DNA of 64,000 nucleotides. Source: Parcubacteria group bacterium Athens0714_16. GTDB lineage: Bacteria > Patescibacteriota > Minisyncoccia > Phycocordibacterales > 21-14-all-36-13. Numbering within the stretch: position 1 is the first letter of the stretch; each line of letters opens with the position of its first letter. The notes beneath the pieces are model-generated. The model saw only the letters and a program-made list of their open reading frames with translations. It made no database searches and was not told where the DNA came from. The position numbers were made by a program, and so were the translations under genes. Positions 31,555 through 62,205 of the stretch are shown here, one piece after another. The stretch spans positions 47,116 to 111,115 of the forward strand of contig VMGX01000002.1 in the NCBI GenBank assembly GCA_007376805.1. The letters run 5' to 3'.

Positions 31555-31592
31555 CGCAGATTTGCGCAGATTGTACGCAGATAAACGCAGAT
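31555..31592 (+). repeat. four phased CGCAGAT heptads immediately upstream of the nusA start
   Basis: CGCAGAT at 31555, 31565, 31576 and 31586 (10/11/10 spacing). Confidence 0.7.
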
Positions 31593-36979: not shown

Positions 36980-37095
36980 GGGTATAAAAAAGTTTACCGA
37001 GTGGTTTTTATGGAATTAAAAAGTAATATTAATAAAATTGTTCAATTGTCACATTGTTTCATTGTTAATTTTTTAATTTTTAACTTACTAACGGG

Positions 37096-38914: not shown

Positions 38915-39006
38915 CCCTGTTAAATAATTCTAAAGTTTTATAAAAAACTTTAGAATTAAAAATTGTAAATAAAGGATAAAATAAAATTAGTAAGATATAA
39001 AAAGTT

Positions 39007-42028: not shown

Positions 42029-42186
42029 CGCAGATTCACCCCGTTAAATAATTTTAAATCGAAAGAAAAATAATATAGGTATGTTTTTAAAAAAAAGAGG
42101 AAAACAAAATCCTATATTAGTAATGAAAAAATTTAAAATTAAAATTTGAGTTCTCTCAAATTTTATTTAACAGGGTAAACGCAGAT
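42029..42186 (+). mobile_element. 158-nt MITE-like element (copy 2)
   Basis: Starts at the base after the stop codon. Same CGCAGAT flanks and CCCCGTTAAATAA / TTATTTAACAGGG terminal inverted repeats as 26751-26907. Confidence 0.65.
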
Positions 42187-42366
42187 GAATGAATGAAAAA
42201 ACAATCTAAATTGCTTTTTCATTCACAATATTTTTCATCCATCCCAGTTAAATATGCTTTGCATTTAACGGGACAGGTAATATCTTTTTAAATCTCCCCA
42301 AAAAGCTTATTTATAGCCATATTTTAAAAAATATAAGAATACTATGCTATAATTAAGATGTAAAAT

Positions 42367-43149
42367 ATGGCTAAAGATTCACAAAATAAAAAAATAGTAG
42401 TTGCAAATTGGAAAATGTCTCCAGAAACAATTGACGAGGCATTTGAAATTTTGAAAAAAGTAAAAGAAACTGCAAAAACTCTCAAAAATACAAAACTTGT
42501 AATTTGCCCCCCATCTTTATACGCAAATGAACTGAAAGAAAGTTTAGGAAAGAGCAAGAAAATTTTATTTGGGGCCCAAAATGTTTTTTATGAAGAAAAA
42601 GGTGCCCATACAGGAGAGATTTCAATAGATATGATAAAAAATTTGGGTATGGGATATGTGATAGTCGGTCATTCGGAAAGACGAATACTTGGGGAAGATG
42701 ATAATATTGTTTCAAAAAAAATAAATTTGGTTTTAAATTCAAAATTGAATGCAATTTTATGTATTGGGGAAAAAGAAAGAAGTGAAGAAGGAGATTTTCT
42801 TTTGTTTATTTCAGAACAAATAAAAAATTCTTTACATGGTGTCGAAAAAAAATATTTAAAAAATTTAATAATCGCATACGAACCAATTTGGGCGATAGGA
42901 AAAACAGCCGAAGACGCCATGGACTCTCGCGGTGTTCATCAAATGCATTTATTTATAAAAAAAGTTTTGAAAGATTTATTTGATGAAAAATCATCTGAAA
43001 AAGTTGCGATAATTTATGGTGGCTCTGTTGAATTAGAAAACACTGAGGAATTGATAGAAAATGGGAACATAAATGGTTTTCTTATTGGTCATGAATCACT
43101 GAACGCTGATAAGTTTTGTAAAATTTTAAAAATTGTTGATAAAAGTTAG
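42367..43149 (+). CDS. tpiA: triosephosphate isomerase
   Basis: VANWKM, VGHSERR and AYEPIWAIG motifs. Confidence 0.95.
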   Translation: MAKDSQNKKIVVANWKMSPETIDEAFEILKKVKETAKTLKNTKLVICPPSLYANELKESLGKSKKILFGAQNVFYEEKGAHTGEISIDMIKNLGMGYVIVGHSERRILGEDDNIVSKKINLVLNSKLNAILCIGEKERSEEGDFLLFISEQIKNSLHGVEKKYLKNLIIAYEPIWAIGKTAEDAMDSRGVHQMHLFIKKVLKDLFDEKSSEKVAIIYGGSVELENTEELIENGNINGFLIGHESLNADKFCKILKIVDKS

Positions 43150-43226
43150 TAAAATCACTAAATCATAAAACAGAAACACTACGGAGGTGTTGCCTCCGTA
43201 GTGTTTTTAAATATAAGTTTCATCTT

Positions 43227-43679
43227 TTATAATTCTTTCTTTATTTTTTCTGCAACCTTGTTTAATTCTTCTGTTGATTTTTGAGGTCCTAATTGTGTTG
43301 AAATGTATCCGATATATTTATCAAAGTAAATTTTATCTTCTGCCCACATTTCTTTAAATTTCTCATCCAATCCGTGGATTGGATATAATTTTATATGGAC
43401 ATGATTGACTCCAAGACCCTCCATAACAATTGCAACTCTTTTTACCACAAGTTTTTTTTCAAGTAGTTTTGCGACTTTTTTTGTAGCAACCATTAGATTC
43501 TTATAGGGATTGTCAGGCATATCTGTTGCATCGCTATCATAATGATCTTTTGTTAGTATCAAGGTCATTCCCTCTGTGTTCGGATTTATATCCAATATCG
43601 CAAGATGTTTCTTGTCTTCCCAAATTTTAACACAAGGAATATCACCTTTTATTATTTTACAAAATATACAATCTTTCAT
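43227..43679 (-). CDS. HIT family protein
   Basis: N-terminal CIFCKII and C-terminal GVNHVHIKLYP histidine-triad-like motif. Confidence 0.7.
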   Translation of the reverse strand: MKDCIFCKIIKGDIPCVKIWEDKKHLAILDINPNTEGMTLILTKDHYDSDATDMPDNPYKNLMVATKKVAKLLEKKLVVKRVAIVMEGLGVNHVHIKLYPIHGLDEKFKEMWAEDKIYFDKYIGYISTQLGPQKSTEELNKVAEKIKKEL

Positions 43680-43760
43680 TGTAGAATATTATATCAATTT
43701 TCTATTTAACAATGAAACAATTGAGCAATTGGACAATGAAACTGTGTTATAATCACGAAT

Positions 43761-45491
43761 ATGAAATATAAAATTTCTGAAAAGTTGGACGAAAAGACAG
43801 AAAAAGAGTTACAAAGTTACCCAGAATTAACTCGCATACTTTTATCGAATAGGGGAATAAAAACCGCGATTGACGCGGAAAGTTTTTTGAATTTAAATTA
43901 TGAAAATAATATACATGATCCATTTTTGATGAAAGATATGAGCAAGGCGGTTAAGAGAATTTTTTTTGCGATTAAAAATAAAGAAAAAATTGTGATTTTT
44001 AGTGATTATGATATGGACGGAATTCCCGGAGCGGTTGCATTACATGATTTTTTCAAAAAAATAGAATACAAAAATTTTATAAATTATATTCCACACAGAA
44101 ACAAAGAGGGGTATGGTTTAAACAAAGACGCAATAAAACAATTTGCAGAAGAAAAGACAAAATTACTTATAACCATTGATTGTGGGATAACAAATGTAAA
44201 AGAAGTTGATTCGGCCAATGAACTCGGTATTGATGTAATAGTTACAGACCACCACTTGCCAAACGGGCATGTTTTAAATGCATGTGCGGTTTTAAATCCA
44301 AAACAAAAAGATGACAAATATCCTTTTGAAAATCTTTGTGGTGCCGGTGTTATTTTTAAAATGATTCAGGCGCTAATAAAAAAGGGGAACGAAGAAAAAT
44401 TATTTGAAATCAAAGAAGGTTGGGAGAAATGGCTTCTCGATATGGTTGGCATGGCTACAATCGCGGATATGGTTCCTCTAATGGGTGAAAACCGGGCACT
44501 CGCTTATTATGGCTTGAAAGTATTGAGAAAATCTCCCAAGGCTGGCCTGGTGAAACTTCTTAAAAAAATTAAAGTTGACCAAGATAAATTAACAGAAGAT
44601 GACATTGGTTTTATGATAGGCCCGAGAATAAATGCAGCATCAAGAATGGATGTTCCCATGGAGGCATTTAAACTTTTAACAACAGATAATGAAGTGGAGG
44701 CGGATTTATTATCGACACACTTAGACAAAATAAATAATGAAAGAAAGGGTGTAGTTGCTTCAATAATTAAAGAGATAAAGAAAACTTATAAGCATCGAGA
44801 AGATAAACCAATAATTGTTATAGGTGACCCAAGGTGGAATCCCGGACTCGTTGGGCTTGCTTGCAATAGTTTGGTTGATGATTACAAAAAGCCCGTATTT
44901 TTGTGGGGCAGGGATGAAAATTCGGTTATAAAGGGCTCTTGCAGATCTGACGGAACGATTGATCTTGTTGAATTAATGTCGGAAATGAAAAATGAAGTTT
45001 TTATTGAATATGGCGGACATTCTTTGTCTGGTGGTTTTTCTGTTCATAATGAAAAAATACATTTTCTCGAAGAGGAATTAATAAAGGCGATTGAAACATT
45101 GAAGCTGAAAAATAATTTGTCTACCATGGCTGTGTCGGCAGGAGAAATTTTTTTGGATGGAGAATTATCTATTGATGATATAAATTTAAATACTTATTCG
45201 CAAATAGAAAAAATGTCTCCATTTGGAGAGGGGAATTCAAAACCACTTTTTATTTTTAACAAAATAAAAATAGACGAAGTTTTAGCTTTTGGAAAAAACA
45301 AAGAACATTTGAAATTAGAATTTAGAAATTCAAAAGGGAATAGAATAGAAGCCATTAGTTTTTTTTCATCAATGGAGGATTATGAGACAAACATAAAAAA
45401 AGATGAAAAAATAAATTTGGTTGCGAATATAGAAAAATCTGACTTTAGAAATTTTCCACAGCTGAGATTGAGAATTGTTGACATTTTTTAG
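43761..45491 (+). CDS. recJ: single-stranded-DNA-specific exonuclease RecJ
   Basis: DHH motifs (FSDYDMDGI, VTDHH) and the DHHA1 region. Confidence 0.9.
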   Translation: MKYKISEKLDEKTEKELQSYPELTRILLSNRGIKTAIDAESFLNLNYENNIHDPFLMKDMSKAVKRIFFAIKNKEKIVIFSDYDMDGIPGAVALHDFFKKIEYKNFINYIPHRNKEGYGLNKDAIKQFAEEKTKLLITIDCGITNVKEVDSANELGIDVIVTDHHLPNGHVLNACAVLNPKQKDDKYPFENLCGAGVIFKMIQALIKKGNEEKLFEIKEGWEKWLLDMVGMATIADMVPLMGENRALAYYGLKVLRKSPKAGLVKLLKKIKVDQDKLTEDDIGFMIGPRINAASRMDVPMEAFKLLTTDNEVEADLLSTHLDKINNERKGVVASIIKEIKKTYKHREDKPIIVIGDPRWNPGLVGLACNSLVDDYKKPVFLWGRDENSVIKGSCRSDGTIDLVELMSEMKNEVFIEYGGHSLSGGFSVHNEKIHFLEEELIKAIETLKLKNNLSTMAVSAGEIFLDGELSIDDINLNTYSQIEKMSPFGEGNSKPLFIFNKIKIDEVLAFGKNKEHLKLEFRNSKGNRIEAISFFSSMEDYETNIKKDEKINLVANIEKSDFRNFPQLRLRIVDIF

Positions 45492-45554
45492 TGTTGGTGG
45501 TATTATTAATTCGAAAATATGTTCATTTTATTCATTTTTTTTGCAGGAGGTTTT

Positions 45555-45815
45555 GTGAAGAAGTTTAAAAAAAGGATTTGTGGGGTTTGTGGAAATACTG
45601 TTTTATCTCATAATGATGGAACGGCGATTACGCACTCAAGAATCGATGGTGCGGGAGTTGTTTATCACGACGACACAACATGTGCAGGGGGTGGCAAGAA
45701 AACTCATCTACGCATGGCAAAATGGGTTTTTATTGCAACATCCATCATCGGCTCGGCTCTGATTGTTGGTGTGAAATACAACCACGACAAAGCAAAAGTT
45801 TTAAAAATAAGCTAA
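45555..45815 (+). CDS. hypothetical Cys-rich membrane-anchored protein
   Basis: GTG start 4 nt after AGGAGG, in frame with ORF 45519-45815. CGVCGN...TCAGGG motif and a C-terminal TM helix. Confidence 0.45.
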   Translation: MKKFKKRICGVCGNTVLSHNDGTAITHSRIDGAGVVYHDDTTCAGGGKKTHLRMAKWVFIATSIIGSALIVGVKYNHDKAKVLKIS

Positions 45816-45877
45816 GAACCTTGGAAGCGGATTAACATCCGCTTTTTATTTTGTTTGTGTAATGTTAAAATTTTCAA

Positions 45878-46573
45878 ATGCATAATAATATAATTATTTT
45901 TACAGATGGTTCAGCACTTGGAAACCCGGGTAAAGCAGGGTGGGGGGCGGTTATTATTTCAAACAAAAAAGAAATTTTGGAAATGGGGGGCTTTGAAAAG
46001 AAATCTACAAATAACAGAATGGAAATGACTGCAGTAATAGAGTCTATTAAACGTGTAAACGAAGAATTTCCCGATTCTCATATTACAATTTATACAGATT
46101 CAAGTTATGTTGTAAATGGAATAACAAAATGGATTCATGGCTGGATTTTAAAGGGATGGGTTGGAGTTAACAAACAACCTATTTTAAACAAGGATTTGTG
46201 GGAAGAACTTAAAGAAGTCAGTGGTTCTAATATTAAGTGGAGTTTATTGCCGGGGCACAGCGGAATATTTGGAAATGAGAAAGCCGATGAAATAGCGACA
46301 ACATTTGCGAGTGAAAATAGACCTATTTTATACAAAGGAACAATTGATAAATATAATAAAAATATTCTTGATCTCAGCACAAATGGTATAAGTAAGAGTA
46401 GTAAAAAAAATGTAATAGCATATTCATATTTAAGTATGGTTAATGGGAAAATAGAAAAACACAAAACATGGAAGGAATGTGAAAGCGTGGTGAAGGGGAA
46501 AAAAGATGTAAAGTTTAAAAAATCAATTAGTAGGGAGGATGAAGAAAAAATTATAGATGAGTGGACAAGTTAA
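45878..46573 (+). CDS. rnhA: ribonuclease HI with C-terminal extension
   Basis: IFTDGSALGNPGKAGWGAVI, NNRMEMTAVIESI and IYTDSSYVVNGI catalytic DEDD motifs. About 80 additional C-terminal residues. Confidence 0.85.
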   Translation: MHNNIIIFTDGSALGNPGKAGWGAVIISNKKEILEMGGFEKKSTNNRMEMTAVIESIKRVNEEFPDSHITIYTDSSYVVNGITKWIHGWILKGWVGVNKQPILNKDLWEELKEVSGSNIKWSLLPGHSGIFGNEKADEIATTFASENRPILYKGTIDKYNKNILDLSTNGISKSSKKNVIAYSYLSMVNGKIEKHKTWKECESVVKGKKDVKFKKSISREDEEKIIDEWTS

Positions 46574-46653
46574 ATTCAAAACCGATGAATGAGGTTTTGA
46601 ATCCACAATTTCATCTTTTTGTTCTTAAAATTTTTGAAACTGATTAGTATTTA

Positions 46654-48177
46654 ATGATTTATACTCAATTGAAAATTCATTCGGTTTTCTATGTTTTAAT
46701 AATAAGCTTTGTTTTAGGAGTGTTTTTCCGCTCCTTTTTTAATTTTGGTTTATTTTTTTTGTTGTTTTTAATTTTAATGTCCATTTTGGTTTCTTTGTTC
46801 TATATTTTGTTTTGCAAACAAAATATTAATATTCTTTTTGTTGCAATATTTATCTTGTTTTTTGGTTTTGGTGTATTTAGGTTTAGTTTATATGATGAAT
46901 ATAAGGGTAGTGAAATTACGGACTCATTAGTTGAGCAAAAAATTACAGCCGAAGGAATAATCACTGATGAACCAATAGAAAAAGAAAAAAGTATAAAATT
47001 TATAGTTAAATTAGACAAAGTTATTTCATTTGATGGAGAAACAAAAGTAAAAGACAGGGTTTTAATAATTACAGATCTTCCGTCTCTATTTAAATATGGT
47101 GACGAAGTTGTTTTAAGAGGCATTCTCATTAAACCAAAAAATTTTTCAAGTAACGATAGAGAATTTGATTATGTTTCCTATCTTTCTAAAGATAAAATAT
47201 TTTATCAAATGTTTCGTCCGGAAATAAAACTAAAATCAGAAGGTGGGGGTAATTATATAAAAGAAGTTTTATTTAGTGTAAAAAATTCTTTTTTAAAAAG
47301 TATTAAAAAAATAATTCCTGAACCACACGCATCTTTACTCGGTGGTTTGACAGTTGGTGCTCAGGAATCTTTGGGAGAGGAATTACAAAATAATTTTAGA
47401 AAAACAGGGATTGCGCACATAGTTGTTTTGTCTGGTTATAACGTGACAATTGTTTCCGAAGCCATAATGCGTGTTTTCGGTTTTCTCCCGATGGTTTTTA
47501 AATTTTCTTTAGGTGCCTTAGCAATAATATTTTTTGTTTTGATGACCGGAGCTTCTGCAACGGCCGTTAGAGCTGGGATAATGGCCGTTCTGGTTATTAT
47601 TGCTCGTGTTACGGGAAGAGAATACGATGCGCTTCGCGCACTTTTAATCGCTGGTGTTGTTATGATAATACAAAATCCTAAGATTTTGGCATTTGATTCT
47701 TCTTTCCAACTTTCTTTTATGGCGACCCTAGGACTATTGTATGTTTCACCACGAATTTACAAATATTTTAAATTTATAACTACAAAATTTCAATTTCGTG
47801 AGCTTGTTGTTTCGGCGATAGCGACACAGCTTTTTGTTTTGCCCCTGATTTTATATAAAATGGGGAACCTTTCCATTTTGGCTCTACCTGTAAATTTACT
47901 TATTCTCCCATTTATTCCGATAACGATGTTTTTCGGTTTTGTTTCTGGGGTTATTGGCTTTTTGGGTTCAGCAATAGCTTTTCCATTTTCTTTTATAACA
48001 TTTCTATTTTTAGATTATGAGTTAAAGATAGTGAATTTTTTTGCAAACATACCTTTTTCTTCGATCCAAATAAACAATTTTCCGGTAGTTTTTATGGTTT
48101 TAATATATATAATTTATGGAGTGATTTTATTTTTAATTAATAAAAATAAGAAAAATGTTCCAAAAATAAATTTATGA
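46654..48177 (+). CDS. comEC: ComEC/Rec2 competence channel protein (N-terminal and Competence-domain part only)
   Basis: 507 aa, polytopic. OB-like region followed by the ComEC-type TM core (GIAHIVVLSGYNVTIV). No metallo-beta-lactamase domain in this ORF. Confidence 0.8.
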   Translation: MIYTQLKIHSVFYVLIISFVLGVFFRSFFNFGLFFLLFLILMSILVSLFYILFCKQNINILFVAIFILFFGFGVFRFSLYDEYKGSEITDSLVEQKITAEGIITDEPIEKEKSIKFIVKLDKVISFDGETKVKDRVLIITDLPSLFKYGDEVVLRGILIKPKNFSSNDREFDYVSYLSKDKIFYQMFRPEIKLKSEGGGNYIKEVLFSVKNSFLKSIKKIIPEPHASLLGGLTVGAQESLGEELQNNFRKTGIAHIVVLSGYNVTIVSEAIMRVFGFLPMVFKFSLGALAIIFFVLMTGASATAVRAGIMAVLVIIARVTGREYDALRALLIAGVVMIIQNPKILAFDSSFQLSFMATLGLLYVSPRIYKYFKFITTKFQFRELVVSAIATQLFVLPLILYKMGNLSILALPVNLLILPFIPITMFFGFVSGVIGFLGSAIAFPFSFITFLFLDYELKIVNFFANIPFSSIQINNFPVVFMVLIYIIYGVILFLINKNKKNVPKINL

Positions 48178-48223
48178 TTGGTATCGACCTTTTTATGGAA
48201 TAATAATTTAATCACCAGCTACT

Positions 48224-48261
48224 AAACCATTCCAATATTCCTAGGAATATTGGAATGGTTT
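48224..48261. promoter_or_regulatory. perfect 38-bp palindrome, candidate operator / bidirectional terminator
   Basis: AAACCATTCCAATATTCCT|AGGAATATTGGAATGGTTT, 40 nt upstream of the HTH gene. A partial copy (GGTATTCCTAGGAACATTGGAATAGGTTT) lies at about 48555-48584, before the MBL gene. Confidence 0.6.
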
Positions 48262-48300
48262 ATGGTATAATTCATAATTATATTATTTTTAAAATTATTT

Positions 48301-48579
48301 ATGAAAAAAAGAAAAAACTATAAAGAATTAGAAAAAATTGTTAAGGGTTTTTCTAATCACAGAAGAATTGAAATAATGGAAATTCTGCATAAAAAACCTG
48401 GACTGTCGTTGTTTGAAATCGCAGAATATTTGGATGTAAATTTTAGAACGATTTCTGAACACACAAGGAGATTGGTTGTGGCTGGGTTGATTTTCAAAAG
48501 AGCAGATATAAATTTTGTGAGACACGAATTAACTAGGCGCGGGAAAGCCGTTCTGGTATTCCTAGGAACATTGGAATAG
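48301..48579 (+). CDS. ArsR/SmtB-like winged-helix transcriptional regulator
   Basis: 92 aa. HRRIEIMEILHKKPGLSLFEIAEYLDVNFRTISEHTRRL is an ArsR-type wHTH. Confidence 0.7.
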   Translation: MKKRKNYKELEKIVKGFSNHRRIEIMEILHKKPGLSLFEIAEYLDVNFRTISEHTRRLVVAGLIFKRADINFVRHELTRRGKAVLVFLGTLE

Positions 48580-48585
48580 GTTTCG

Positions 48586-49503
48586 ATGGTTTTTTATTTG
48601 TTTTTTGTTTTTCTCTTTTTTTTATTTTGTTTTATGAAAACATTAAAATCTATTCAAAAATATTTAAAATTTATTATTTTACTTTTTCTGACCCTCACCG
48701 TTCTCTTTATTTGGTCTGGGGTTTTTGCTCAGCAACAAGGCGATATTTTGAAGATTGCGTTTTTGGACGTTGGACAGGGTGATGCAATATTTATAGAAAC
48801 ACCAAGTGGCAACCAAGTTCTTATTGATGGTGGTCCCGACAAAAAAGTTTTGAGAGAATTATCAAAAATTATGCCTTTTTTTGATAGGACAATTGATGTT
48901 GTTATTGAAACACACCCAGATCAAGATCATATAGGTGGATTACCTGCGATCTTTGAAGGATATGAAATTTCTAAATTTATTGAATCGGGGGTGGTTTCTG
49001 ATACGGACACATATAATTTTTTAAGAGATTTAGTTAAAGAAGAAAAATCCGAACAAATTTTAGCGAGAAGAGGAATGATTTTAAATTTAGATAATGGTAT
49101 TTATTTAAAAATTTTATTTCCAGACAGAGATGTGTCTGGAATAGATACAAATGATGCGTCGGTTGTTGCTCAACTTGTTTATGGAAACACAAAATTTTTA
49201 TTTACAGGCGATTCGCCTCAAAAAATTGAAAATTATATAACCTCACTTAATAGCAAGGAATTAAAAAGTGATGTTTTAAAGGTTGGCCACCATGGTTCAA
49301 AAACCTCCTCGTCAAAATCTTTTTTGGGATTTATTTCTCCCGAATACGCGGTTATATCTGTTGGGGCAGATAATAAATATGGGCATCCAAACCAAGAGGT
49401 AATTGATTTGTTAAATGAATTCGATGTTGGAATTTTAAAAACTTCTGAAAACGGAACAATAATTTTTGAAACAGACGGAGAGGTTTTAAATTTAATCCAA
49501 TAA
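48586..49503 (+). CDS. membrane-anchored metallo-beta-lactamase fold hydrolase (ComEC C-terminal-domain-like)
   Basis: N-terminal TM. FLDVGQGDAIFIE, ETHPDQDHIGG and VGHHGS motifs match the ComEC lactamase_B domain. Confidence 0.8.
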   Translation: MVFYLFFVFLFFLFCFMKTLKSIQKYLKFIILLFLTLTVLFIWSGVFAQQQGDILKIAFLDVGQGDAIFIETPSGNQVLIDGGPDKKVLRELSKIMPFFDRTIDVVIETHPDQDHIGGLPAIFEGYEISKFIESGVVSDTDTYNFLRDLVKEEKSEQILARRGMILNLDNGIYLKILFPDRDVSGIDTNDASVVAQLVYGNTKFLFTGDSPQKIENYITSLNSKELKSDVLKVGHHGSKTSSSKSFLGFISPEYAVISVGADNKYGHPNQEVIDLLNEFDVGILKTSENGTIIFETDGEVLNLIQ

Positions 49504-49674
49504 CTTCTAAATTTATTTGTTATGTCAAAAATTATAATCTATTCTCTTATTCTTACGAATAAGAGAATAGATTATAGGTTTTTACAAAAATAAAAGCCGG
49601 ATTAAATCCGACTTTTATTTTTATAAAACACAAAAAACATTATAAATTAAAAAGCTCATTAAGAGCTTTTTAAT

Positions 49675-49917
49675 TTATATAACCCCAGCTTTCTTAAGAA
49701 CGGCGTAGGCGCCATGTTTTTGTATAGTTTTGATTGCCTTTGTTGAAAGTATTACATTTACTGTCTTATTTATTTCAGGAACAAAAACCCTTTTGTTTTT
49801 AAGGTTTGCTTTTCTTCTTTTTACTCCCACAGGATTAAACTGTGTAGCACGAGTTCTGTTGCTGTATCCACCAGCCATTTTTGAACTCTTACCATTTACT
49901 GCGCATTTTCTTGCCAT
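49675..49917 (-). CDS. rpmB: 50S ribosomal protein L28
   Basis: 80 aa. MARKCAVNGK...SNRTRATQ...RRKANL pattern is L28-like. Confidence 0.8.
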   Translation of the reverse strand: MARKCAVNGKSSKMAGGYSNRTRATQFNPVGVKRRKANLKNKRVFVPEINKTVNVILSTKAIKTIQKHGAYAVLKKAGVI

Positions 49918-50067
49918 ATTTTTCTTATTAAGTGTGATTATGTTATCATAATATCAAATTTATTCAAGTATTATGTCCCAGTAGCAAAATATTTTTCAAT
50001 ATTATAAGTTGCATTCAAAACACAGCGGATGAATTAAAATTTCTTTTAAATATTTTAAATTCTGATT

Positions 50068-50697
50068 TTGCTACGGGATAAACAAGGAATGGAAACAATT
50101 TTTTCAATAATAATATTAATTTTTTCTGTTGTCATACACGAGTTTTCTCATGGATATGCCGCAGATAAATTAGGCGACCCAACTGCTCGGTTGGCTGGTC
50201 GTCTGACCTTAAACCCATTTGCACACCTTTCTTTATTTGGTTCTTTCATTTTTCCTCTAATAACATATTCGCTCGGTGGTTTTATTTTTGGTTGGGCAAA
50301 ACCAGTTCCCTATAATCCATACAACATAAGACATAAATATGGAGATGCAATTGTTGCGGTCGCTGGCCCGGGCTCAAATTTTTTACTTGCAGTAATTTTT
50401 GGTGTTTTGATTCGTCTCAATGTCGCATATGGTCTTTTCCCGTCGCCATTTATTGATGTTTTTGCTCTGATTGTTGTTATAAATATAATTTTAGGAATTT
50501 TTAATCTGATCCCGATTCCACCATTGGATGGTTCAAAAATTCTTTTTAACTTTTTGCCGGTCAGATATTTATTTATAAAAGATTTTCTTGAAAAATATTG
50601 GCCAGTTTTCGCATTTATACTCGTTTTCTTTTTGTGGAAATTTATACTACCACTCGTTCATTTAATTTTTTCTCTCATAACAGGAATAGCCGTTTAA
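50068..50697 (+). CDS. M50 family (site-2 protease-like) zinc metalloprotease
   Basis: HEFSHGYAA (HExxH) and [14 protein letters not shown] (NxxPxxxLDG) motifs, polytopic. The start may be METIFS at 50089. Confidence 0.8.
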
Positions 50698-50791
50698 TAG
50701 GGAATTTTTCCAAAACCCTTGCTTTTTATTGTTAAAAATATTACATTATATGTCGTTCGGTGTATTAACCGAACGGTGTTTTTTATTAAAA

Positions 50792-51208
50792 ATGTCCACA
50801 ATAAATCAATTAATTAAGAGCGGAAGAAAAAAACAGGTTAAAAAGCCAAGGGCTGTGGCTCTTTTGCGTGGTTTTAATACTAAGAAAAATGCACCAGTAT
50901 TTTATCCGTCTCCCTTTAAAAGAGGTGTTTGTATAAAAGTAACGACAAAAACTCCTAAAAAACCAAACTCTGCTATAAGAAAGATTGCTAGGGTAAGATT
51001 AACAAACGGATTGGAAGTAACAGCATATATTCCGGGGATAGGACACACAATTCAGGAACACTCAGTCGTTTTGTTAAGATCTGGGAAAGTAAAAGATATC
51101 GGTGTTAGATACACGATTGTAAGAGGAAAATTAGACGCTTCCGGAGTTGATAAAAGAGAAAACGCAAGAAGTCGTTACGGAGTTAAAAAACCTAAGGTTA
51201 AAAAGTAG
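50792..51208 (+). CDS. rpsL: 30S ribosomal protein S12
   Basis: [14 protein letters not shown]...[18 protein letters not shown]. Start set at the conserved MSTINQL; the ORF is open from 50729. Confidence 0.95.
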
Positions 51209-51309
51209 AAAGCAACAAAACAACAAAACAACAAAACAACAAAGCAACAAAGCAACAAAGCAAGAAAACAAGAAAACAAAGCACAAAAAATATTTTATAA
51301 TTTATTAAT

Positions 51310-51780
51310 ATGAGAAGAGCAATTAAAAGAAGAGACCCTGTCTCACCAGACCGAATATATAATTCAACAAAAGTTGAGAAGTTTCTTGGTTATATAATGG
51401 AGAGTGGTAAAAAAGAAATAGCAATGAAAATTGTTTATGATGCTTTTGATTATATAAAGGAAAAAGAAAAAGGAGCAAATCCTCTTGATGTTTTTGAAAA
51501 TGCTATAAAAAATTCATCTCCACTTATGGAAGTTCGTTCAAGAAGAATTGGTGGTGCAAACTATCAGGTTCCTCGTGAAGTTAGACCAGAAAGAAGATTA
51601 TCTTTGTCTATGAGATGGATAATTGATGCAGCAAAATCAAAGAAAGGAGCTAAAATGTTTAAAAAATTAGGAGATGAAATAATTCTCGCAAGTAAGGGAG
51701 AGGGTGAGGCAGTAAAGAAAAGAGAAAATACCCACAAGATGGCGGAATCAAACAAGGCGTTCGCTCATTTTTCGTGGTAA
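51310..51780 (+). CDS. rpsG: 30S ribosomal protein S7
   Basis: 156 aa. EVRSRRIGGANYQVPREV and KAFAHFSW are S7 signatures. Confidence 0.95.
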   Translation: MRRAIKRRDPVSPDRIYNSTKVEKFLGYIMESGKKEIAMKIVYDAFDYIKEKEKGANPLDVFENAIKNSSPLMEVRSRRIGGANYQVPREVRPERRLSLSMRWIIDAAKSKKGAKMFKKLGDEIILASKGEGEAVKKRENTHKMAESNKAFAHFSW

Positions 51781-51858
51781 TTTATTGGTTTTATTTTATA
51801 AATTTATACTTTTAAGTTGTAGTTTTGACTTTTGAGTTTTAAGTTTTGAGTTAATTTT

Positions 51859-52755
51859 ATGCGTGATTACCCATTAGAAAAAGTTAGAAACATAGGAATT
51901 ATTGCACACATAGACGCGGGGAAAACAACAGTTTCCGAGCGCGTTCTTTTTTATACAGGAGTTTCTCACAAAATAGGTGAAGTCCACGAAGGAAAGGCGG
52001 TTATGGATTGGATGGAACAGGAAAGAGAAAGAGGAATTACCATTACATCCGCTGCAACGACTTGTTTTTGGACTCCAACATATCAAACAATGCAGATAAA
52101 CGCAGATAAAAAATCGCAGATTGACGCAGATGAAACAAAAAAAGAATTTGAACACAGAATAAATATTATAGATACACCAGGACACGTGGACTTTACAGTT
52201 GAGGTTGAGAGATCTCTGAAGGTTCTTGACGGTGGTGTTGTTGTTTTTGACGGAGTCGCAGGAGTTGAACCACAGTCAGAAACAGTTTGGAGACAGGCAG
52301 ATAAATATCATGTTCCAAGAATTTGTTTTATAAACAAACTCGATAGAACAGGAGGAAATTTTGAAAGGTCATACAAAACAATTTTAGATAGATTAACAAA
52401 AAATGCAGTTAGAATGCAGATACCGATCGGTGAAGAAGAAAAACACATGGGAGTTGTTGATCTTTTGAAAATGAAAGCATTTTATTTTGAAGGAGATTTA
52501 GGGAGCACAATAAGAGAAGCTGAAATCCCAGACGAATTAAAGGCTGATGCACAGAAATACAGAAATGAACTTGTAGAAAAAATTGTTGAGAACGACGAAG
52601 AAATGATGACCAAATATCTTGGCGGTGAAGAGATTGGAGTTGATATTTTGAAAAAACTTTTAAGAAAATCAGTAATTGCTGGGTTGGTTGTTCCTGTTTT
52701 TACTGGTTCCGCATTAAAAAATAAAGGAGTTCAACTTGGATGTTCCGCCAATTAA
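51859..52755 (+). CDS. fusA: elongation factor G, N-terminal (G domain) ORF
   Basis: [14 protein letters not shown] and NKLD GTPase motifs. Ends ...[14 protein letters not shown] after a frame break. Contains a 27-aa insertion before [11 protein letters not shown]. Confidence 0.85.
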
Positions 52756-54007
52756 AGGAATAGACCCAAACACTGACGGAGAAATAGAAAGAAAATCAGA
52801 TGATAACGAGCCGTTTGCTGCGCTTGCTTTTAAATTACAAACGGACCCATTCGTTGGTCAGTTAACATATTTTAGAGTTTATTCAGGAACACTTGAATCT
52901 GGTTCTTATGTGTACAATTCTACAACAGGAGAAAAAGAAAGAATCGGAAGAATTTTAAGAATGCATGCAAACCTAAGAGAAGATGTAAAAAAAGTTTATG
53001 CAGGAGAAATTGCAGCAGCTGTTGGTCTTAAAAACACAAGAACATCAGATACTCTTTGTGACGAAGTCCATCCAATAATTCTTGAAAGAATTGTGTTCCC
53101 AGAACCGGTTGTATCTTTGAGAATTGAACCAAAAACAAAAGCAGACCAAGAAAAAATGGGTATTGCACTTAAAAAACTTTCTGACGAAGATCCAACATTC
53201 AGAATTAAATCAGATCAAGAAACACTGGAGACAATTATTTCTGGTATGGGAGAATTACACCTCGATATTATTGTGGACAGAATGAAAAGAGAATTTAATG
53301 TTGAAGCAAATATAGGCAAACCACAGGTTGCATACAGAGAAACAATAACAGGCGAGGCAGAAGCAGAATATAAATACATAAGACAAACAGGTGGTCGCGG
53401 ACAATACGGTCACGTAAAAATTAGAGTCAAACCAATGCCGTTAGAAGAAGAAAAAAATAAAAAACTTGCAAGAAATATAAAGAGGTCTGAGGGACTTGAA
53501 TTTATAAATAATATTAAAGGGGGCGTTATTCCACAAGAATATATTCCAGCAGTTGAAAAAGGGGTTCGTGAAGCGATGGACAGAGGTATTCAGGCTGGTT
53601 ATAAAATTGTAAATGTGTCAGTGGATTTGTTTGACGGTTCATTCCACGACGTTGACTCTTCTGAAATTGCATTCAAAATTGCAGCATCACAAGCATTTCA
53701 AGATGCAACAAAAAGAGCAAAACCAGTTATTCTTGAGCCTGTTATGAAATTAGAAGTTGTTACACCAGATAAATTTATGGGAGACATAACAGGAAATCTT
53801 GCTTCAAAGAGAGGACAAATTGAAGGCTCTGAAGAAAGAATTGGTTTGAAAGTAATTCATGCGAAAGTTCCTCTTTCAGAAATGTTTGGATATACGACAT
53901 CATTACGTTCAATGACAGAAGGCCGTGCATCTTCAACAATGGAATTTGATCATTATGCGATTGTACCGGAGAATGTTGCTAAAGAAATTATAGAAGCGAG
54001 AAAGTAG
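52736..54007 (+). CDS. fusA: elongation factor G, domains II-V ORF
   Basis: (L)DVPPIKG...PFAALAFK...ISGMGELHL...[11 protein letters not shown]. In the +1 frame relative to the upstream ORF. TTG at 52736 lies 6 nt after AAGGAG. Confidence 0.85.
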
Positions 54008-54151
54008 AATCACTAAATCACCAAATCACCAAATCACCAAATCACTAAATCATAAAACCAAAAAAAATCAAAAAAACAAAAATAATAAGCTCGTTTGAAT
54101 AAAATTCAAACGAGCTTATTTTTTAATTCCCTTCCAAGCAGATTTTTATAA

Positions 54152-56487: not shown

Positions 56488-57296
56488 CTAACCTTGTGTT
56501 AAGAAATATGAACGAATACAAAAAATCACTAAAAAAGCGGAGGTAATAATCTTGTTTTTGAAGGATTATCGCCCGCTTATTAAAGCGGTTTTTTTATTAA
56601 AGAAATTGGCGGAATGACTGGACGAATGAACATTGAAAAATGAATATTAGTTAAGTTTAAAAGCAGAATCCAAGTGTCTTTTTCGTGGCACTGGATTTTA
56701 AAGTATTTTTCATCTAGCGGAATAGAAATATTCCATAGAAAATAAGTTTTATTAAGTCCCGCGTGATTTAATAAAAAAATTGTGGTTTATGTAGTTCCTA
56801 ACAGGAAATACATAAGGGCGTATGGTGGATGCCTTGACTCTAAGAGGCGATGAAGGACGTGGCATGGCTGCGATAAACTTCGGGGAGGTGCCTAGCAACC
56901 TTTGATCCGAAGGTTTCCGAATGGGGTAACCCATTGTGACAAACTCACAATACTGAATTTATTCAGTGCATACCTGGGGAAGTAAAACATTTCAGTACCC
57001 AGAGGAAAATAGAACAATAGTTATTCCCTTAGTAGCGGCGAGCGAAAAGGGAAAAGCCCAAACCGAACTCTTTTATTAGGGCTCGGGGTTGTAGGACGTT
57101 AATATCATATTTATATGAAAGAAGTTACAAATGTGTTAGATAGTTGAACAAGCTGGAAAGCTTGGCCCCAGAGGGTGATAGCCCCTTAAACGAAATTTTA
57201 CACACTTCTTTGTTAATGTTCCTGAGTATCTCAAGACACGAATGGCTTGAGAGAATCTGCCGGAACTAACCGGTAAGGCTAAATACTCTTAGAGAT

Positions 57297-57339
<43 letters not shown>

Positions 57340-58679
57340 GGAGAGGGGAGTGAAATAGACCTGAAACCATATGTCTACAAGGAGTCGGAGCAGAACTCTA
57401 CTGAGTTCTTTAAATATGTTTTTTAAAATTTATAATTTATGGATTTTAAAATTAGAGAATTGAGTAGAGTTTCTGCGACGGCGTGCCTATTGAAGAATGA
57501 GCCAACGAGTTTACATGTACTGCTTGACTAAGTCCCGAAAGGACGGAGTCTAAGGGAAACCGAGTGTTAAAAGCGCGTTCCGCTTTATTGCGGGTGTAGT
57601 ATATGTAAGACCCGAAGCCAGGTGAGCTACCCATGATCAGGGTGAACTTTGTCGAAAGACAAAGGGAGGCCCGAACCGTTTAGCCGTGCAAAACTATCGG
57701 ATGAATTGTGGGTAGGAGTGAAAAGCTAATCGAACTTGGTAATAGCTGGTTCTCTCCGAAATAGCTTTAGGGCTAGCGTTTAGTTTATCTTTTGGGGGTA
57801 GAGCACTGGATGGTCTGGATAGGAGGCAACTTCACTAGACCAATCAAACTCCGAATACCAGAAGCCACTACTAAACAGTCAGACTACGGGGGCTAAGCTC
57901 CGTCGGTCAAAAGGGAAACAGCCCAGATCTCAAGTTAAGGTCCCTAAATTTACATTAAGTGCAAATAAGGAGGTGGAATTTCTCCGACAGCGAGGAGGTT
58001 GGCTTAGAAGCAGCCATCCTTTAAAGAAAGCGTAACAGCTCACTCGTTAAGAGATTTTGCGCCACAAATAATCGGGGCTAAATGTGATACCGAAACTGAG
58101 GATGTCATCACTTTATTGTGATGGCGTGGTAGGAGAGCATTCCGTTCTACTGTGAAGCCAAAGGGGTGACCCATGGTGGAGTGTACGGAAGAGATAATGT
58201 TGGCACGAGTAACCACAATTCCACTAAGAAAGTGGAACGCCGAAAGATCAAGGTTTCCTTGGCAATGTAAATCATCCAAGGGTTAGTCGGTCCTAAGGTT
58301 ATGACGAAAGTCGGAGCCGATGGACACACGGTTAATATTCCGTGACTTTCATTTATTTCGATGGGGTGACGAAGTTTAGTATGTTTGGCGCATTATTGGA
58401 TTTGCGTCTACTTTGTGAGGAAGGTGCTTAGGCAAATCCGGGCACCTGACTTTAATGTCAATTCCAAGCGAGGCGGAGAACCTGAGATTCGTCAAAGGGA
58501 ATCAAACAAAGCAAGCTTCCAAGAAAAACCTCTAAGGTTAAATAAATGAAAACCGTACCGAAAACCGACACAGGTGATCAGGTCGAGAAGACTAAGGCGA
58601 ATGAGTGAGTGTTCCCCAAGGAACTCGGCAAAAAAGCAGCCGTAACTTTGGAATAAGGCTTTCCAGCTCCAATTTTGGG

Positions 58680-58950
58680 AGTAAAATTAAATTATGAATT
58701 ATGTTTATCTTATTCAAAATGATTTTGATGGAGAAATATATATTGGACAAACTTCTGATATAAAAAGAAGGTTGGCTGAACATAATAATAAATGTCAAAA
58801 AGTTTACCACTAAAAAACGGTAAGTGGATAATTATTTATCTTGAAATATTCAGAAATAAAAAAGATGCACAAGAAAGAGAAAATAAATTAAAACAACATG
58901 GTGGTGGTAAAAAAGAATTACTTAAGCGACTAAGATATAGTTTGCTTGAG
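58680..58950 (+). other. 271-nt insertion in the terminal loop of a helix-63-equivalent hairpin
   Basis: Closed by the 17-bp helix CCAGCTCCAATTTTGGG (58663-58679) with CCCAAAATTGGAGCTGG (58951-58967). Lacks the AUAUAGUC group I signature. Confidence 0.6.
58694..58935 (+). pseudogene. frameshifted GIY-YIG nuclease gene inside the 23S insertion
   Basis: Frame 1 reads MNYVYLIQNDFDGEIYIGQTSDIKRRLAEHNNK (GIY-YIG N-half, stop at 58813). The C-half KWIIIYLEIFRNKKDAQERENKLKQ continues in another frame from about 58792, with no stop until 59028 in rRNA sequence. The shift lies near an A-run. Confidence 0.65.
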
Positions 58951-59124
58951 CCCAAAATTGGAGCTGGACGCAGCGAAAGTACCCCTGGCGACTGTTTACC
59001 AAAAACACAGCTCCCTGCGAACTCGTAAGAGGATGTATAGGGGGTGACGCCTGACCAATGCCAGAAGGTTAAACATGAGGGGTCCAAGAAGTTTTACTTT
59101 TTGGGCTGGATTATGTAAGCCCTG

Positions 59125-59159
<35 letters not shown>

Positions 59160-59611
59160 TCTCGGTTTAATTTTTAAATTGAATCGAGAAAGACTAGGAC
59201 TGTTATAATAAAAAATTGGTAACAAAAGATTGCTGCCTATTTCACGTAAAGTGAAATGTCTATAAAATTTGACCATATGCTGGGAAACCCGCGATGTATC
59301 CTTAAGTACTCGTTTAATTTTTTAAACAGTAACAAACTTTAAGGTGATGCGGAAAATCAGCAGGAAAGTTTGAATTCTTTTTAATTAAATCTAGAATTCA
59401 AAATCCTCAGAGACTAAAAGTCAGACTAAGTTGTCTACAAAAACAATTTAGAAAATATAGTCCGAACTTTGTGGCGACACAGAGAGTGAGACAGAAATGT
59501 TCTTACCTTGTATCTGCGTTCATCTGCGCCTGCCCCGTAGCTAGAGCATAGCTCTATGGTACTGGGGTATAATTTGCGTAGATCTGCGTTTGTTACAAAG
59601 TAACAAAGTTG
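59160..59611 (+). mobile_element. group I intron (ORF-less) at the E. coli 1917-equivalent position
   Basis: Interrupts CCTAAGGT|...G|AGCGTAATTCC. The 5' exon ends in U and the intron ends in G. Contains AGACTAAAAGTC and GAAAATATAGTCC core-like motifs. Confidence 0.75.
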
Positions 59612-60105
59612 AGCGTAATTCCTTGTGTGGTAAGTTCACACGTGCACGAATGGCGTAACGACTGGGGGACTGTCTCGGGGAACAGCTCGGTGAAAATACA
59701 GTATCGGTGAAGATGCCGATTACCTGCAACGGGACGAAAAGACCCCGGGAGCTTTACTGCAACTTCGTATTGAATATACGTTTCATCTGCGTAGCATAGA
59801 TGGGAGACTTTGAAGTTTGTTTTTCGGAACAGATGGAGTCAACAGTGAAATACCATTCTTATGTGATGTATATTCTAACCTCAACGGCAAAAACGGTGAG
59901 GGACATTGCGTGGTGGGCAGTTTTAGTGGGGCGCTATCCTCCTAAAGAGTAACGGAGGAGTTTATCAAGGTCAGCTAGGCGCGAATGGAAACCGTGCCGA
60001 TAGTGTAATGGCACAAGCTGGCTTAACTGCGAGACGGACATGTCGAGCAGATGCGAAAGCAGAACATAATGAACCGACGATTCGAATTAGACACGGTCGG
60101 AGATT

Positions 60106-60138
<33 letters not shown>

Positions 60139-60181
60139 GGTTCCGCCTAAGCGTTCAGAGCGACGGCGGAGTTCGGCACCT

Positions 60182-60503
60182 TAAAGTAAATTTACAAATT
60201 TAAATCGGGGTGCGACGTGAGAGATTGCGTAGCCTGGAATCAAAAACATATTTGTAGGAGAATATGTTCAGATTAAAAATATTGGCTTATAACGGTGGAC
60301 TCCATCATAAAAATTTTTATTATGGACAATACCGTGGGAAGTCTTCGTTTTCAAAAACGAATGACCCCGTAGAGACTGATGCGAAAGCAGAGAGTATTTC
60401 ATAAACGAAATGCTAATACGCCAACTCCTAACCACAATAAATTAATTGTGGAAGGAAGAAGATATAGTCCGATCCTTCTGGTAACAGAAGAAAAATGACA
60501 TTG
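60182..60503 (+). mobile_element. group I intron (ORF-less) at the E. coli ~2500-equivalent position
   Basis: Interrupts GGCACCT|...G|CGATGTCGG. Contains GAAGATATAGTCC. Shares blocks with the next intron. Confidence 0.75.
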
Positions 60504-60659
60504 CGATGTCGGCTCGACTTATCCTGGGACTGGAGAAGGCCCCAAGGGTTTGGCTGTTCGCCAATTAAAAAGTCACGTGAGCTGGGTTCAGACCGTCGTG
60601 AGACAGGTTGGTCTCCTATCTGTTGCAGGCGTCGATTTTTGAGGAGATTTGCTTCTAGT

Positions 60660-61486
60660 AAGTAATTGCTACTTCTCATAGTAATATGGGATGACAATTT
60701 GGCTAATAACGGTGAAATCTTCATAGGTTATCTGGCAGTGGAAAAACAATTAGCGCGGTCCGTTAATTGTGATAAAATTACTTGAGGACCAGATAATTTT
60801 TAAGACAATACCGTGGGAAGTCGATCTAAAATTAATTTAGCATATATCGCTGGTTTTCTTGATGGAGATGGAAGTTTAATGCTCCAAATAAAGAAAAGAA
60901 GTGATAACAAAAGAGGGATTCGTTTTATGGCGACAATATGTTTCTATCAAGATAGTCGTCACGATGAACCTTTATATTGGATAAGAAAAGAATTAAACAT
61001 AGGGTATGTTTCAAAAAGAAAAGATGGAATTACTGAATTGAGGATCAATGGATTTGAGAGAATTGAAGAAATTCTTAAAAATCTTATTCCTTATATAAAA
61101 TTCAAAAAGATACAAGCAAAAGCATTATATGATTGTTGTAAAATTTTACAAAAACCAATGAATGCTTTAAAAGAAAGTGATTTCAGAAAACTTGTAGATT
61201 TGATTCTTACAATTCAAAAAGAAAACTATGTTTCAAAGAAAAAGAAAGACAAAGAAGAATTGCTAAAACTATTAGATTTGACCCCGTAACGACTTGTTTT
61301 GTTCAATCTAATTTGAACAAACGGACTTGTATAATTTCGGAAGGTTCTGAAATATTTTAGGACAGATTTATACTTGTAATACGCCGACACCCTAATCAAC
61401 ACAAGGTTGGTGGGTGAAGATATAGTCTACACTCCTAGAAATAGGGGATAAATTCTAAATCAATTAAAAAGATTAAGAAATATGTG
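60660..61486 (+). mobile_element. group I intron with LAGLIDADG ORF in the sarcin-ricin loop region
   Basis: Interrupts CTAGT|...G|ACGAGAGGACC. Contains GAAGATATAGTCT. The ORF is inserted between the blocks CAATACCGTGGGAAGTC and TGACCCCGTA. Confidence 0.75.
60813..61289 (+). CDS. single-motif LAGLIDADG homing endonuclease (I-CreI-like)
   Basis: 158 aa. LAYIAGFLDGDGSLMLQIKKR motif and overall I-CreI-like layout. GTG start within a conserved intron block. Confidence 0.85.
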   Translation: MGSRSKINLAYIAGFLDGDGSLMLQIKKRSDNKRGIRFMATICFYQDSRHDEPLYWIRKELNIGYVSKRKDGITELRINGFERIEEILKNLIPYIKFKKIQAKALYDCCKILQKPMNALKESDFRKLVDLILTIQKENYVSKKKKDKEELLKLLDLTP

Positions 61487-61874: not shown

Positions 61875-61983
61875 GGCGGTATAGTTTAATCTGCTCTGGG
61901 CAGACTGACCAGTGGTTTTTGGTTAGGGTTAAAACGTCGCCCTTTTAAGGCGAAGAGTATTGGTTCGAGTCCGATTATCGTCA
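61875..61983 (+). tRNA. tRNA-Lys (anticodon UUU) with a 36-nt D-loop insertion
   Basis: Acceptor GGCGGTA/TATCGTC, D-stem GTTT/AAAC, anticodon arm TCGCC-CTTTTAA-GGCGA, T-arm ATTGG-TTCGAGT-CCGAT. The insert at 61891-61926 lies between AAT and GGTTA of the D-loop. Confidence 0.6.
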
Positions 61984-61989: not shown

Positions 61990-62064
61990 GCGGGGGTAGT
62001 TCAGTTGGTTAGAACATTCGTTTCGCAAAACGAAAGGTCGGTGGTTCGAGTCCACCCCTCTGCT
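61990..62064 (+). tRNA. tRNA-Ala-like (G3:U70; CGC-containing 8-nt anticodon loop)
   Basis: Acceptor GCGGGGG/CCTCTGC with G3:U70, D-arm GTTC-AGTTGGTTA-GAAC, anticodon stem TTCGT/ACGAA enclosing TTCGCAAA (8 nt), variable AGGTC, T-arm GGTGG-TTCGAGT-CCACC. Confidence 0.6.
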
Positions 62065-62205
62065 CGAAGTTTTTTTTGAGTTCTTTTATATGGGCCGTTG
62101 AATTAACAGACCGAGGTCTTTAGTGACTGGCGTAACAGCGCGGGCTCAACGGAACGGGAGAGCTTGGTTGGGGTAATCGGTAAATCACCCACGGTCTATC
62201 ATTTT

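Follow-up and report, generated by a model that had tools for sequence, protein, structure and literature searches.

A dispersed four-heptad DNA repeat as the probable source of an in-frame insertion in the elongation factor G loop of a Parcubacteria group bacterium

The Rickettsia palindromic elements (RPEs) RPE-1, RPE-4 and RPE-6, described by Ogata, Claverie and colleagues, add about 15–50 residues to proteins at tolerated positions and are absent from the orthologues of relatives (PMC3733652). Repetitive extragenic palindromes (REPs) of the GTAG and CGTC super-families measure 20–40 bp and occur mostly a short distance 3' of coding regions (Di Nocera et al. 2013, PMC3733652); occasional intragenic copies encode 20–30 residues, and the CGTC class is without a dedicated transposase (PMC3733652). 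Here we describe a comparable case in a 64,000-nucleotide (nt) stretch of Parcubacteria group bacterium Athens0714_16 (contig VMGX01000002.1, positions 47,116 to 111,115; hereafter the window), where fusA, the gene for elongation factor G (EF-G), carries a module of four CGCAGAT-type heptads. We consider it probable that this EF-G segment derives from a small dispersed repeat that is occasionally copied into coding DNA and kept where tolerated. Like the RPEs, the module is dispersed, occurs both between genes and in frame in housekeeping genes, and has no known transposase (PMC3733652). However, RPEs are palindromic, 100–150 bp long and scattered over many genes, whereas the module comprises 41 nt of direct heptads and enters the same EF-G/LepA loop repeatedly; unlike the GTAG and CGTC REPs, it bears neither tag and has no stem-loop. 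The comparison supports a variant of known in-frame repeat insertion, with the recurrence in the EF-G/LepA loop and unexplained arrays across phyla as additional features.

The fusA module occupies 52091–52131 on the forward strand and reads TGCAGAT-aaa-CGCAGAT-aaaaaat-CGCAGAT-tga-CGCAGAT, i.e., 41 nt with a heptad spacing of 10/14/10. Two frames alternate along its four heptads, which read M-Q-I, N-A-D, S-Q-I and D-A-D, within a loop of 27 residues (52072–52152) that follows the sequence TTCFW and whose flanking residues are intact on both sides. Loop and heptad DNA were rechecked at the nucleotide and peptide level and are exactly as a preliminary description of this DNA had claimed. The frame is kept through the insert without stop codons (42 nt, a multiple of three), and contig L164, from an independent assembly, matches the window from 41310 to 52736 at 100% identity, module included. 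The boundaries of the insertion are approximate, as the final heptad overlaps the apparent native Y-A-D coding sequence; before the insertion, the loop probably read TPTY/ADETKKEFE, with the slash at the insertion point. An exact look-up of the N-terminal EF-G open reading frame (ORF) of the window returned no record, and those of its S7 and S12 proteins returned contigs of the same population only. The fusA RNA segment containing the module folds no better than shuffled sequences (z = +0.75) and forms no hairpin, and an Rfam scan of the window gave no family overlapping the heptad arrays. The module has no terminal inverted repeats, its edges being ambiguous owing to the repeated heptads, and the heptads of the window are direct repeats with no inverted pairs among them, unlike a palindromic, hairpin-forming unit. 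An intein, an intron or a translational-bypass element was rejected as the identity of the segment, which is only 42 nt long, unstructured and without an Rfam match, the arrays being in frame and open in all four unbiased DNA matches described below.

The insertion stands out against the closest available EF-G sequences. In this clade the loop ranges from 2 to about 35 residues, mostly 12–27; among 120 homologues, all Paceibacteria-like, it varies in length and is most commonly 12–13 residues long with the pattern TPTYxxxDKxKK. The nearest available relatives, 78–82% identical outside the loop, all have loops of 12–13 residues (e.g., TPTYADKDDDSKK), which suggests a net gain of about 14 residues or 42 nt, and the extra segment is without a counterpart in every available close relative. 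In the nearest relative with available loop DNA (L002), the insertion point reads ACA-TAT-GCA-GAT-AAG. The preliminary description had measured the loop against 2 residues in Thermus and about 10 in Escherichia coli; that baseline is not relevant, but the insertion is real relative to the short loops of Paceibacteria. The orthologue alignment that it had proposed confirms the short loops of the nearest relatives (78–82% identity). The insertion is not unique: it recurs in further lineages, and also in lepA.

When the protein is aligned to solved EF-G chains, the insert falls in a gap that opens after the strand with the terminal FW and closes before the HRINxIDTPGH strand, where the structures have a short turn; it thus lies in the G domain between strands β2 and β3, shortly ahead of the DTPGH motif. 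An AlphaFold (AF2) model from 44 sequences, with a mean predicted local distance difference test score (pLDDT) of 77, brackets the insert by strands 66–71 and 99–106 and renders it as two short helices (residues 74–82 and 87–96, pLDDT ~75–80). The surface loop proposed in the preliminary description is therefore borne out by model and alignment, and the predicted site is a surface-exposed, tolerant loop. The same EF-G loop carries unrelated extra segments elsewhere, for example TEALANTNAK in P0017 and PAEVLTKAGAK in P0009; L129 has a GC-rich CTGCGCTCCGCAGGAGGCTTCGGCGAGGCGAGC piece 5' of its heptad array (~4470–4515), and the loops of L127, P0009, P0091 and P0041 also bear other, unrelated extra segments. 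Judged from these sequences, the loop appears to be a general hotspot for small insertions.

The fusA module belongs to a repeat family of the same genome. Exact CGCAGAT occurs 24 times in the window against 2.66 expected (maximum of 7 in 100 shuffles), heptad pairs spaced by 10 nt with up to two mismatches number nine against 0.05 expected, and arrays of at least three heptads occur four times, whereas 200 first-order Markov simulations produced none. Chance similarity under a proper repeat model, which the preliminary description had named as a way in which it might fail, is not borne out by the pairs and arrays. An independent, generic repeat finder paired 26897–26942 with 52097–52142 at 83% identity over 46 nt (family D13). 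Clusters occur at six sites, upstream of pnp, 3' of rny, at the nusA start, after the ORF at 40256–42028, in fusA and in an intron of the 23S rRNA gene, so that the fusA segment has noncoding family copies in the same genome upstream of pnp, past rny, at nusA and in the intron (Table 1). The copy at 8967–9007 is situated between divergent genes, at 104 nt upstream from the start of pnp (polynucleotide phosphorylase), and has the same heptad architecture and spacing as the fusA module, as the preliminary description had stated; the two also have the A6Y central spacer in common. The module past rny is interrupted by a miniature inverted-repeat transposable element (MITE) and, after excision of the latter in silico, becomes a perfect CGCAGAT-aaa-CGCAGAT-aaaaaac-CGCAGAT-ttt-TGCAGAT with 10/14/10 spacing. 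The irregular 10/14/10 layout and A6Y centre are thus common to three loci, which favours copying over independent slippage.

Table 1 Positions within the window of the fusA insertion, the heptad arrays and other repeats
Feature	Position	Strand	Basis or remark
fusA (EF-G), two ORFs	51859–54007: 51859–52755 (N-terminal part) and 52736–54007	+	Homologue comparison
Heptads in fusA	TGCAGAT 52091–97; CGCAGAT 52101–07, 52115–21, 52125–31	+	Sequence
Inferred insertion in fusA, 42 nt or 14 codons	~52084–52125	+	Loop DNA of L002, L124 and L125; loop lengths of 120 homologues
Intergenic four-heptad module	8967–9007	-	CGCAGAT-ata-CGCGGAT-aaaaaac-CGCAGAT-aga-CGCAGAT, 10/14/10
Module directly past rny stop codon, MITE-interrupted after heptad 1	26751 and 26901–26931	+	Sequence
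Four exact heptads, 10/11/10, 8 nt from nusA start codon (nusA on -)	31555–31592	+	Sequence
Heptads either side of second MITE copy	42029–35, 42180–86	+	Begins directly after stop of ORF 40256–42028
Two heptad pairs flanking a 35-nt hairpin	59512–28, 59572–88	-	3' peripheral tail of group I intron, 23S rRNA gene
MITE/hairpin family, terminal inverted repeats CCCYGTTAAAT / ATTTAACRGGG	26758–26897, 42036–42176, 38915–39058, 5612–5666		Sequence
MITE family, short hairpins	2435, 42243		Further member in relative L166 at 9919–9972
Short-period intergenic arrays	24070–24160, 24715–24790, 51200–51290, 54005–54060, 4206–4247, 37035–37076		Sequence

The group I intron of the 23S rRNA gene spans about 59158–59605 (Rfam core 59214–59484), a 455-nt insertion at about E. 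coli position 1917–1923, and carries its heptad pairs within a 120-nt 3' tail that folds stably (z = -4.9), with the heptads forming part of the stem. Isolated heptads in genes (four in coding sequences, one in a 23S exon) are about as frequent as expected by chance, so that arrays outside fusA are limited to noncoding or peripheral sequence within the window. The orientation of the heptads relative to transcription varies, being sense in fusA and antisense in the 23S intron and upstream of nusA, whereas their spacing, 10 nt within pairs and 11–14 nt between pairs, makes them direct repeats recurring about once per helical turn, as in tandem operators. Short-period arrays are a general trait of this genome's spacers: the intergenic arrays with an 8-nt period comprise (CAACAAAG)n, one of them in the rpsL–rpsG spacer, (AATCACCA)n, which directly follows the fusA stop, and (CATTGTTT)n.

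Heptad arrays recur in the same loop of other genes. In P0005 (locus L001), whose EF-G is 72% identical to that of the window, the loop reads VPTYRLAQTNADGNADSRGQKNQEYK and its DNA CGCAGAC-taa-CGCAGAC-gggaa-CGCAGAT-tca-CGCGGAC, the array starting 7 nt after the same Tyr codon as in the window. Relatives of P0005 at 93–94% identity have 12-residue loops and no array, and its alignment with P0071 (94% identity) has a clean 14-residue gap. Metagenomic contigs were further scanned for two heptads followed by IDTPGH codons 20–45 nt on, with neither frame nor openness required. This gave five loci, four of them distinct: three EF-G genes spaced 10/12/10 (L128, to which L132 is identical, L129 and L131) and a lepA gene (L130; TIGR01393, 714 bits) with four heptads spaced 11/11/10 in the homologous loop. 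All four distinct matches are in frame and free of stops. The array-bearing EF-Gs are only 65–80% identical to one another and at least two of them have closer array-free relatives (P0005/P0071 at 94%, L129/P0080 at 89%); there appear, therefore, to have been several independent gains of arrays, or repeated losses. Repeated entry of one repeat into the corresponding loop of EF-G and LepA, which are paralogous GTPases of translation, provides a natural experiment on loop growth. No similar insertion was seen without the family elsewhere among the checkable relatives, a combination that the preliminary description had set against its own proposal: in L130 another array follows the lepA stop at a distance of 12 nt, and in L132 arrays follow tuf and rpsJ. 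A further array, in L109, adjoins a surface-protein gene with TSP3 repeats, and a peptide search with the translated arrays for other host proteins returned nothing within the E-value limit.

What these genes share is DNA sequence rather than peptide. In every array-bearing gene the heptads match the consensus at 23–27 of 28 positions, whereas flanking codons at conserved residues are used identically at a rate of only ~0.25–0.65, with no rise beside the loop. The third heptad is read as S-Q-I in the window and as N-A-D in L001, because the central spacing is 14 nt in the former and 12 nt in the latter. Shared heptads, frame switching and scrambled flanking codons together argue that the conserved unit is the DNA heptad and not the peptide. 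Spread by recombination between fusA alleles was rejected, as synonymous identity is not raised next to the loop. In the insertions found via protein homology, the only ones free of orientation bias, CGCAGAT is always on the sense strand, where it encodes the hydrophilic Q-I, N-A-D or R-R/G; the antisense would give I-C-V and L-R-S-A. Hydrophilic coding by the sense strand may explain why only sense insertions occur in this set.

Close relatives differ in how they have kept the family. The NusA of the window is 100% identical to the one recorded for Parcubacteria group bacterium Athens0714_16. In L166 and L168, NusA is 94% identical to that of the window and the nusA region 86% identical at the DNA level. 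L166 has the same four heptads upstream of nusA, all exact and with spacers that differ from those of the window, and its array is split centrally by a 64-nt member of the same inverted-repeat element family as the MITE near rny. In L171, whose NusA is 85% identical, CGCAGAT is absent from 21 kb, and the nusA site is a degenerate ATTGCG-tat-GTTTGCG. The heptad family thus seems to persist in certain lineages while sister lineages have lost it or lack it, as REP-like families behave, and exact heptads across diverged genomes would leave room for a functional reading. Relatives also carry a gene resembling a REP-associated tyrosine transposase (RAYT) of the Y1 type (L166 14722–15396, also L167 and L168; L124 6816–7496), which matches NF047646 at 77 bits, below the cut-off of 80; the L166 copy has GAAGAGGGTCAGGTACCCTTTTTAG palindromes on its flanks, and the window contains neither the gene nor that palindrome. 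A Pfam scan of 47 window ORFs revealed no Y1 transposase. A RAYT as mobiliser of the module was rejected, since the relative's RAYT-like gene has its own, different palindrome and the module has neither the cognate RAYT nor the GTAG tag of REPs and REPINs (REP doublets forming hairpins).

Arrays of the same heptad also occur far outside this clade. A scan for three heptads with one genome per species gave at least 120 loci, and 91 loci with phased triplets remained among the matches listed after removal of trivial microsatellites. Among these matches, the usual form is TTAAC-CGCAGAT-gaa-CGCAGAT-rra-CGCAGAT (flank and spacers included), the labelled bacterial hosts include Cyanobacteria, Planctomycetota, Verrucomicrobiota, Acidobacteriota, Nitrospirota, Chloroflexota, Bacteroidota, Omnitrophota, Desulfobacterota and Patescibacteria, and the archaeal hosts include methanogenic or Methanoperedens archaea; some host labels of metagenome-assembled genomes are probably wrong, and isolates are also present. 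Coding status was not used for the cross-phylum arrays, as long stop-to-stop ORFs are unreliable in GC-rich genomes. The sibling motifs CACAGAT, CACGGAT and CGCGGAT occur at the same cross-phylum loci. Heptad triplets occur in 31 viral contigs (L133–L163), several of them in multiple copies, and as seven unannotated matches in plasmids (six Nostocales, one Bacteroides), with no phage match in annotated collections. REPINs, reportedly described by Bertels and Rainey in 2011, are inverted doublets that form hairpins. Similarly, 43 of 131 triplets among the matches listed are followed 10–100 nt downstream by their reverse complement (upstream, 2 of 131), and such inverted pairs form hairpins of 80–110 nt resembling a MITE or REPIN; the modules of the window, in contrast, are solo direct arrays. 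Long-range inverted pairs had no target-site duplication or transposase, the ORFs between them being ordinary as listed, without a Pfam scan. Rfam gave nothing overlapping the arrays in 18 array-bearing loci, no neighbour family is conserved around the 91 array loci listed (the largest shared family occurs in only four), and a literature search with 17-mer strings found no match. A heptad-array repeat of the same sequence is thus common to many phyla and viral contigs with no Rfam family, plasmid annotation or literature match.

In the mechanism that we propose, the source would be a small non-autonomous dispersed repeat, consisting of four CGCAGAT heptads as two pairs and normally situated in noncoding DNA in this genome, from which about 42 nt would have been copied into the β2–β3 turn of the EF-G G domain. 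The copy may have persisted because its length is a multiple of three, its frame is free of stops, its residues are hydrophilic (Q-I-N-A-D-K) and the loop was already variable in length. Other EF-G genes of Paceibacteria, as well as lepA, would have undergone the same process independently, with selection acting as a filter, the loop accepting an insertion that most other coding sites would not. As a guess, the copying would be due to template switching or illegitimate recombination seeded by a native near-heptad (TAT-GCA-GAT, cf. L002), rather than to a dedicated transposase. The preliminary description had proposed that a noncoding module was inserted in frame; family membership, the extra segment and its loop position hold, whereas we infer the copying direction from noncoding DNA to the gene, and the insert would be translated and presumably neutral. 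If so, bacteria of the candidate phyla radiation, with their very small genomes, would join the few cases of selfish or neutral repeats in core proteins.

Several observations sit uneasily with a neutral, copied repeat. All eight heptads upstream of nusA in the window and L166 are exact despite 86% DNA identity and varied spacers, an exactness that looks like purifying selection or homogenisation, unlike a purely neutral passenger. That arrays recur in the same loop of both paralogues, EF-G and LepA, could point to a preference for the site or to a function there and not to mere tolerance, and the metagenome pattern, which included the IDTPGH codons, was bound to return this site alone. Neither an enzyme that would mobilise the module nor a terminal inverted repeat nor a clear target-site duplication was detected for it, and the palindrome GGGTCAGGTACCC that flanks the RAYT-like gene of a relative differs from the module and is absent from the window. 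Furthermore, the absence of the insertion from relatives holds for an EF-G set whose nearest members are 78–82% identical and which does not include the relative with 94% NusA identity, and translation of the fusA insert is presumed.

Tandem direct repeats spaced once per helical turn are bound by winged-helix regulators of the OmpR/PhoB type and by MraZ; Pho boxes (PhoB) and MraZ boxes are 6–7 bp direct repeats, 10–11 bp from centre to centre, in sets of two to four. The heptad arrays might likewise be binding sites for a tandem-repeat-binding protein (a dimer of dimers), selected as regulatory sites or as roadblocks in fusA and lepA, an explanation that we regard as the main rival but as unlikely. 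Direct repeats with 10–11 bp phasing in two pairs agree with it, as do heptads that stay constant between genes and genomes while their spacers vary (the eight nusA-upstream heptads of the window and L166 included), the position of arrays beside the boundaries of genes (8 nt from the nusA start, upstream of pnp, past the stops of rny, lepA, tuf and rpsJ) and the recurrence at one site of two GTPase genes. However, Pho and MraZ boxes have other sequences and occupy specific promoters of a defined regulon, whereas the heptad arrays are dispersed in either orientation and occur also in a gene and an intron. Their orientation relative to transcription is inconsistent, their gene contexts are unrelated (e.g., the TSP3-repeat surface protein in L109), no neighbour protein family is conserved across the 91 loci listed, and no candidate regulator was identified. 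The arrays also seem dispensable, as L171 retains only a degenerate nusA remnant without heptads in 21 kb and the close relatives of array-bearing fusA genes manage without one. A broader view, which we think unlikely, is that the arrays are an undescribed sequence-specific DNA module of bacteria, archaea and phages, through recognition by a protein or as the target or footprint of a heptad-specific mobile element, the recurrence in the EF-G/LepA loop then being site-directed (homing-like) or selected. If the arrays are indeed protein-binding or transposition-target sites, they would represent a widespread, unstudied genome feature. DnaA boxes, uptake sequences and Rho sites were set aside for apparent misfits of sequence or distribution.

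Neither slippage nor selection on the protein accounts as well for the shared DNA layout. In-place slippage or duplication of a native GCAGAT-containing decamer, with the likeness to intergenic arrays due to the same local mutational process, would start from a sequence such as that of L002, whose TAT-GCA-GAT-AAG supplies a single TGCAGAT and an A-rich triplet at the exact spot, in a genome rich in short-period arrays such as the 8-nt (CAACAAAG)n. We nevertheless hold it to be quite improbable: the spacers aaa, aaaaaat and tga are not copies of one another, so that the module is not a head-to-tail unit of the slippage type, the irregular 10/14/10 layout with its A6Y centre is found at two other loci of the genome, and similar arrays occur in unrelated loop contexts (L131, lepA) where a seed is not evident. 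It is very improbable that the inserted peptide was selected as an acidic helical protrusion of the G domain contacting the ribosome or a partner, with the DNA repeat as a by-product of convergent coding. The model does give two short helices (pLDDT ~75–80) and not a disordered loop, and loop length is variable in the clade, but the peptides differ while the DNA heptads are common, the reading frame of one heptad changes from gene to gene, and synonymous positions are fixed within heptads (GCG, CAG, GCA, CGC) where flanking codons are scrambled. A copy of a dispersed repeat, tolerated in the loop, therefore remains the reading that we prefer.

The element that interrupts the rny module is itself repeated. 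A 157-nt unit common to 26751–26907 and 42029–42186 contains a MITE of ~140 bp with the terminal inverted repeats CACCCCGTTAAATA and TATTTAAYAGGGT, and this form includes a Shine-Dalgarno sequence, an eight-codon ORF (MKKFKIKI) and a hairpin resembling a terminator, with a loop that has opposite orientations in the two 140-bp copies. Unlike the heptad module, this nested CCCYGTTAAAT element has terminal inverted repeats. Since three of its five long or medium copies lie directly 3' of a CGCAGAT heptad, their positions suggest that the element targets heptads. Relative to nusA, a block of a 258-residue gene, a 124-residue gene, tig and clpP (window 26750–31550) is inverted compared with L166 and L171, and one of the inversion breakpoints falls at the heptad module near rny with its MITE.

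The fusA gene of the window is split into two ORFs. Relative to all relatives, 38 nt encoding VLDAVVDYLPSP are missing at 52736/52737, a gap unrelated to the heptad insert. Because contig L164, identical up to 52736, ends exactly there and two other contigs break near rpsG, the missing 38 nt are most likely an artefact of contig joining and not a sign of pseudogenisation. The wording of the preliminary description, in which the host is an essential GTPase, hence needs care: the split is likely an assembly join, but the gene as it stands in the window is interrupted. In-frame repeats inflate the apparent divergence of EF-G, a standard phylogenetic marker, and may contribute to contig breaks around fusA.

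Elsewhere in the window, the 23S rRNA gene (56802–60656) is 3855 nt long against a 2925-nt model, so that further insertions besides the ~450-nt group I intron must exist, and an ORF for a LAGLIDADG endonuclease (60813–61289) lies just beyond its annotated 3' end. ARAGORN called a tRNA with a four-base anticodon (cgca) at 61990–62065, and Rfam gave a second, partial tRNA-like match at 61920–61975. ComEC is apparently split (46654–49503) into a Competence/DUF4131 ORF (46654–48177) and a metallo-beta-lactamase ORF (48586–49503), with a small ORF with weak MarR/helix-turn-helix matches, as called in L164, between the two halves.

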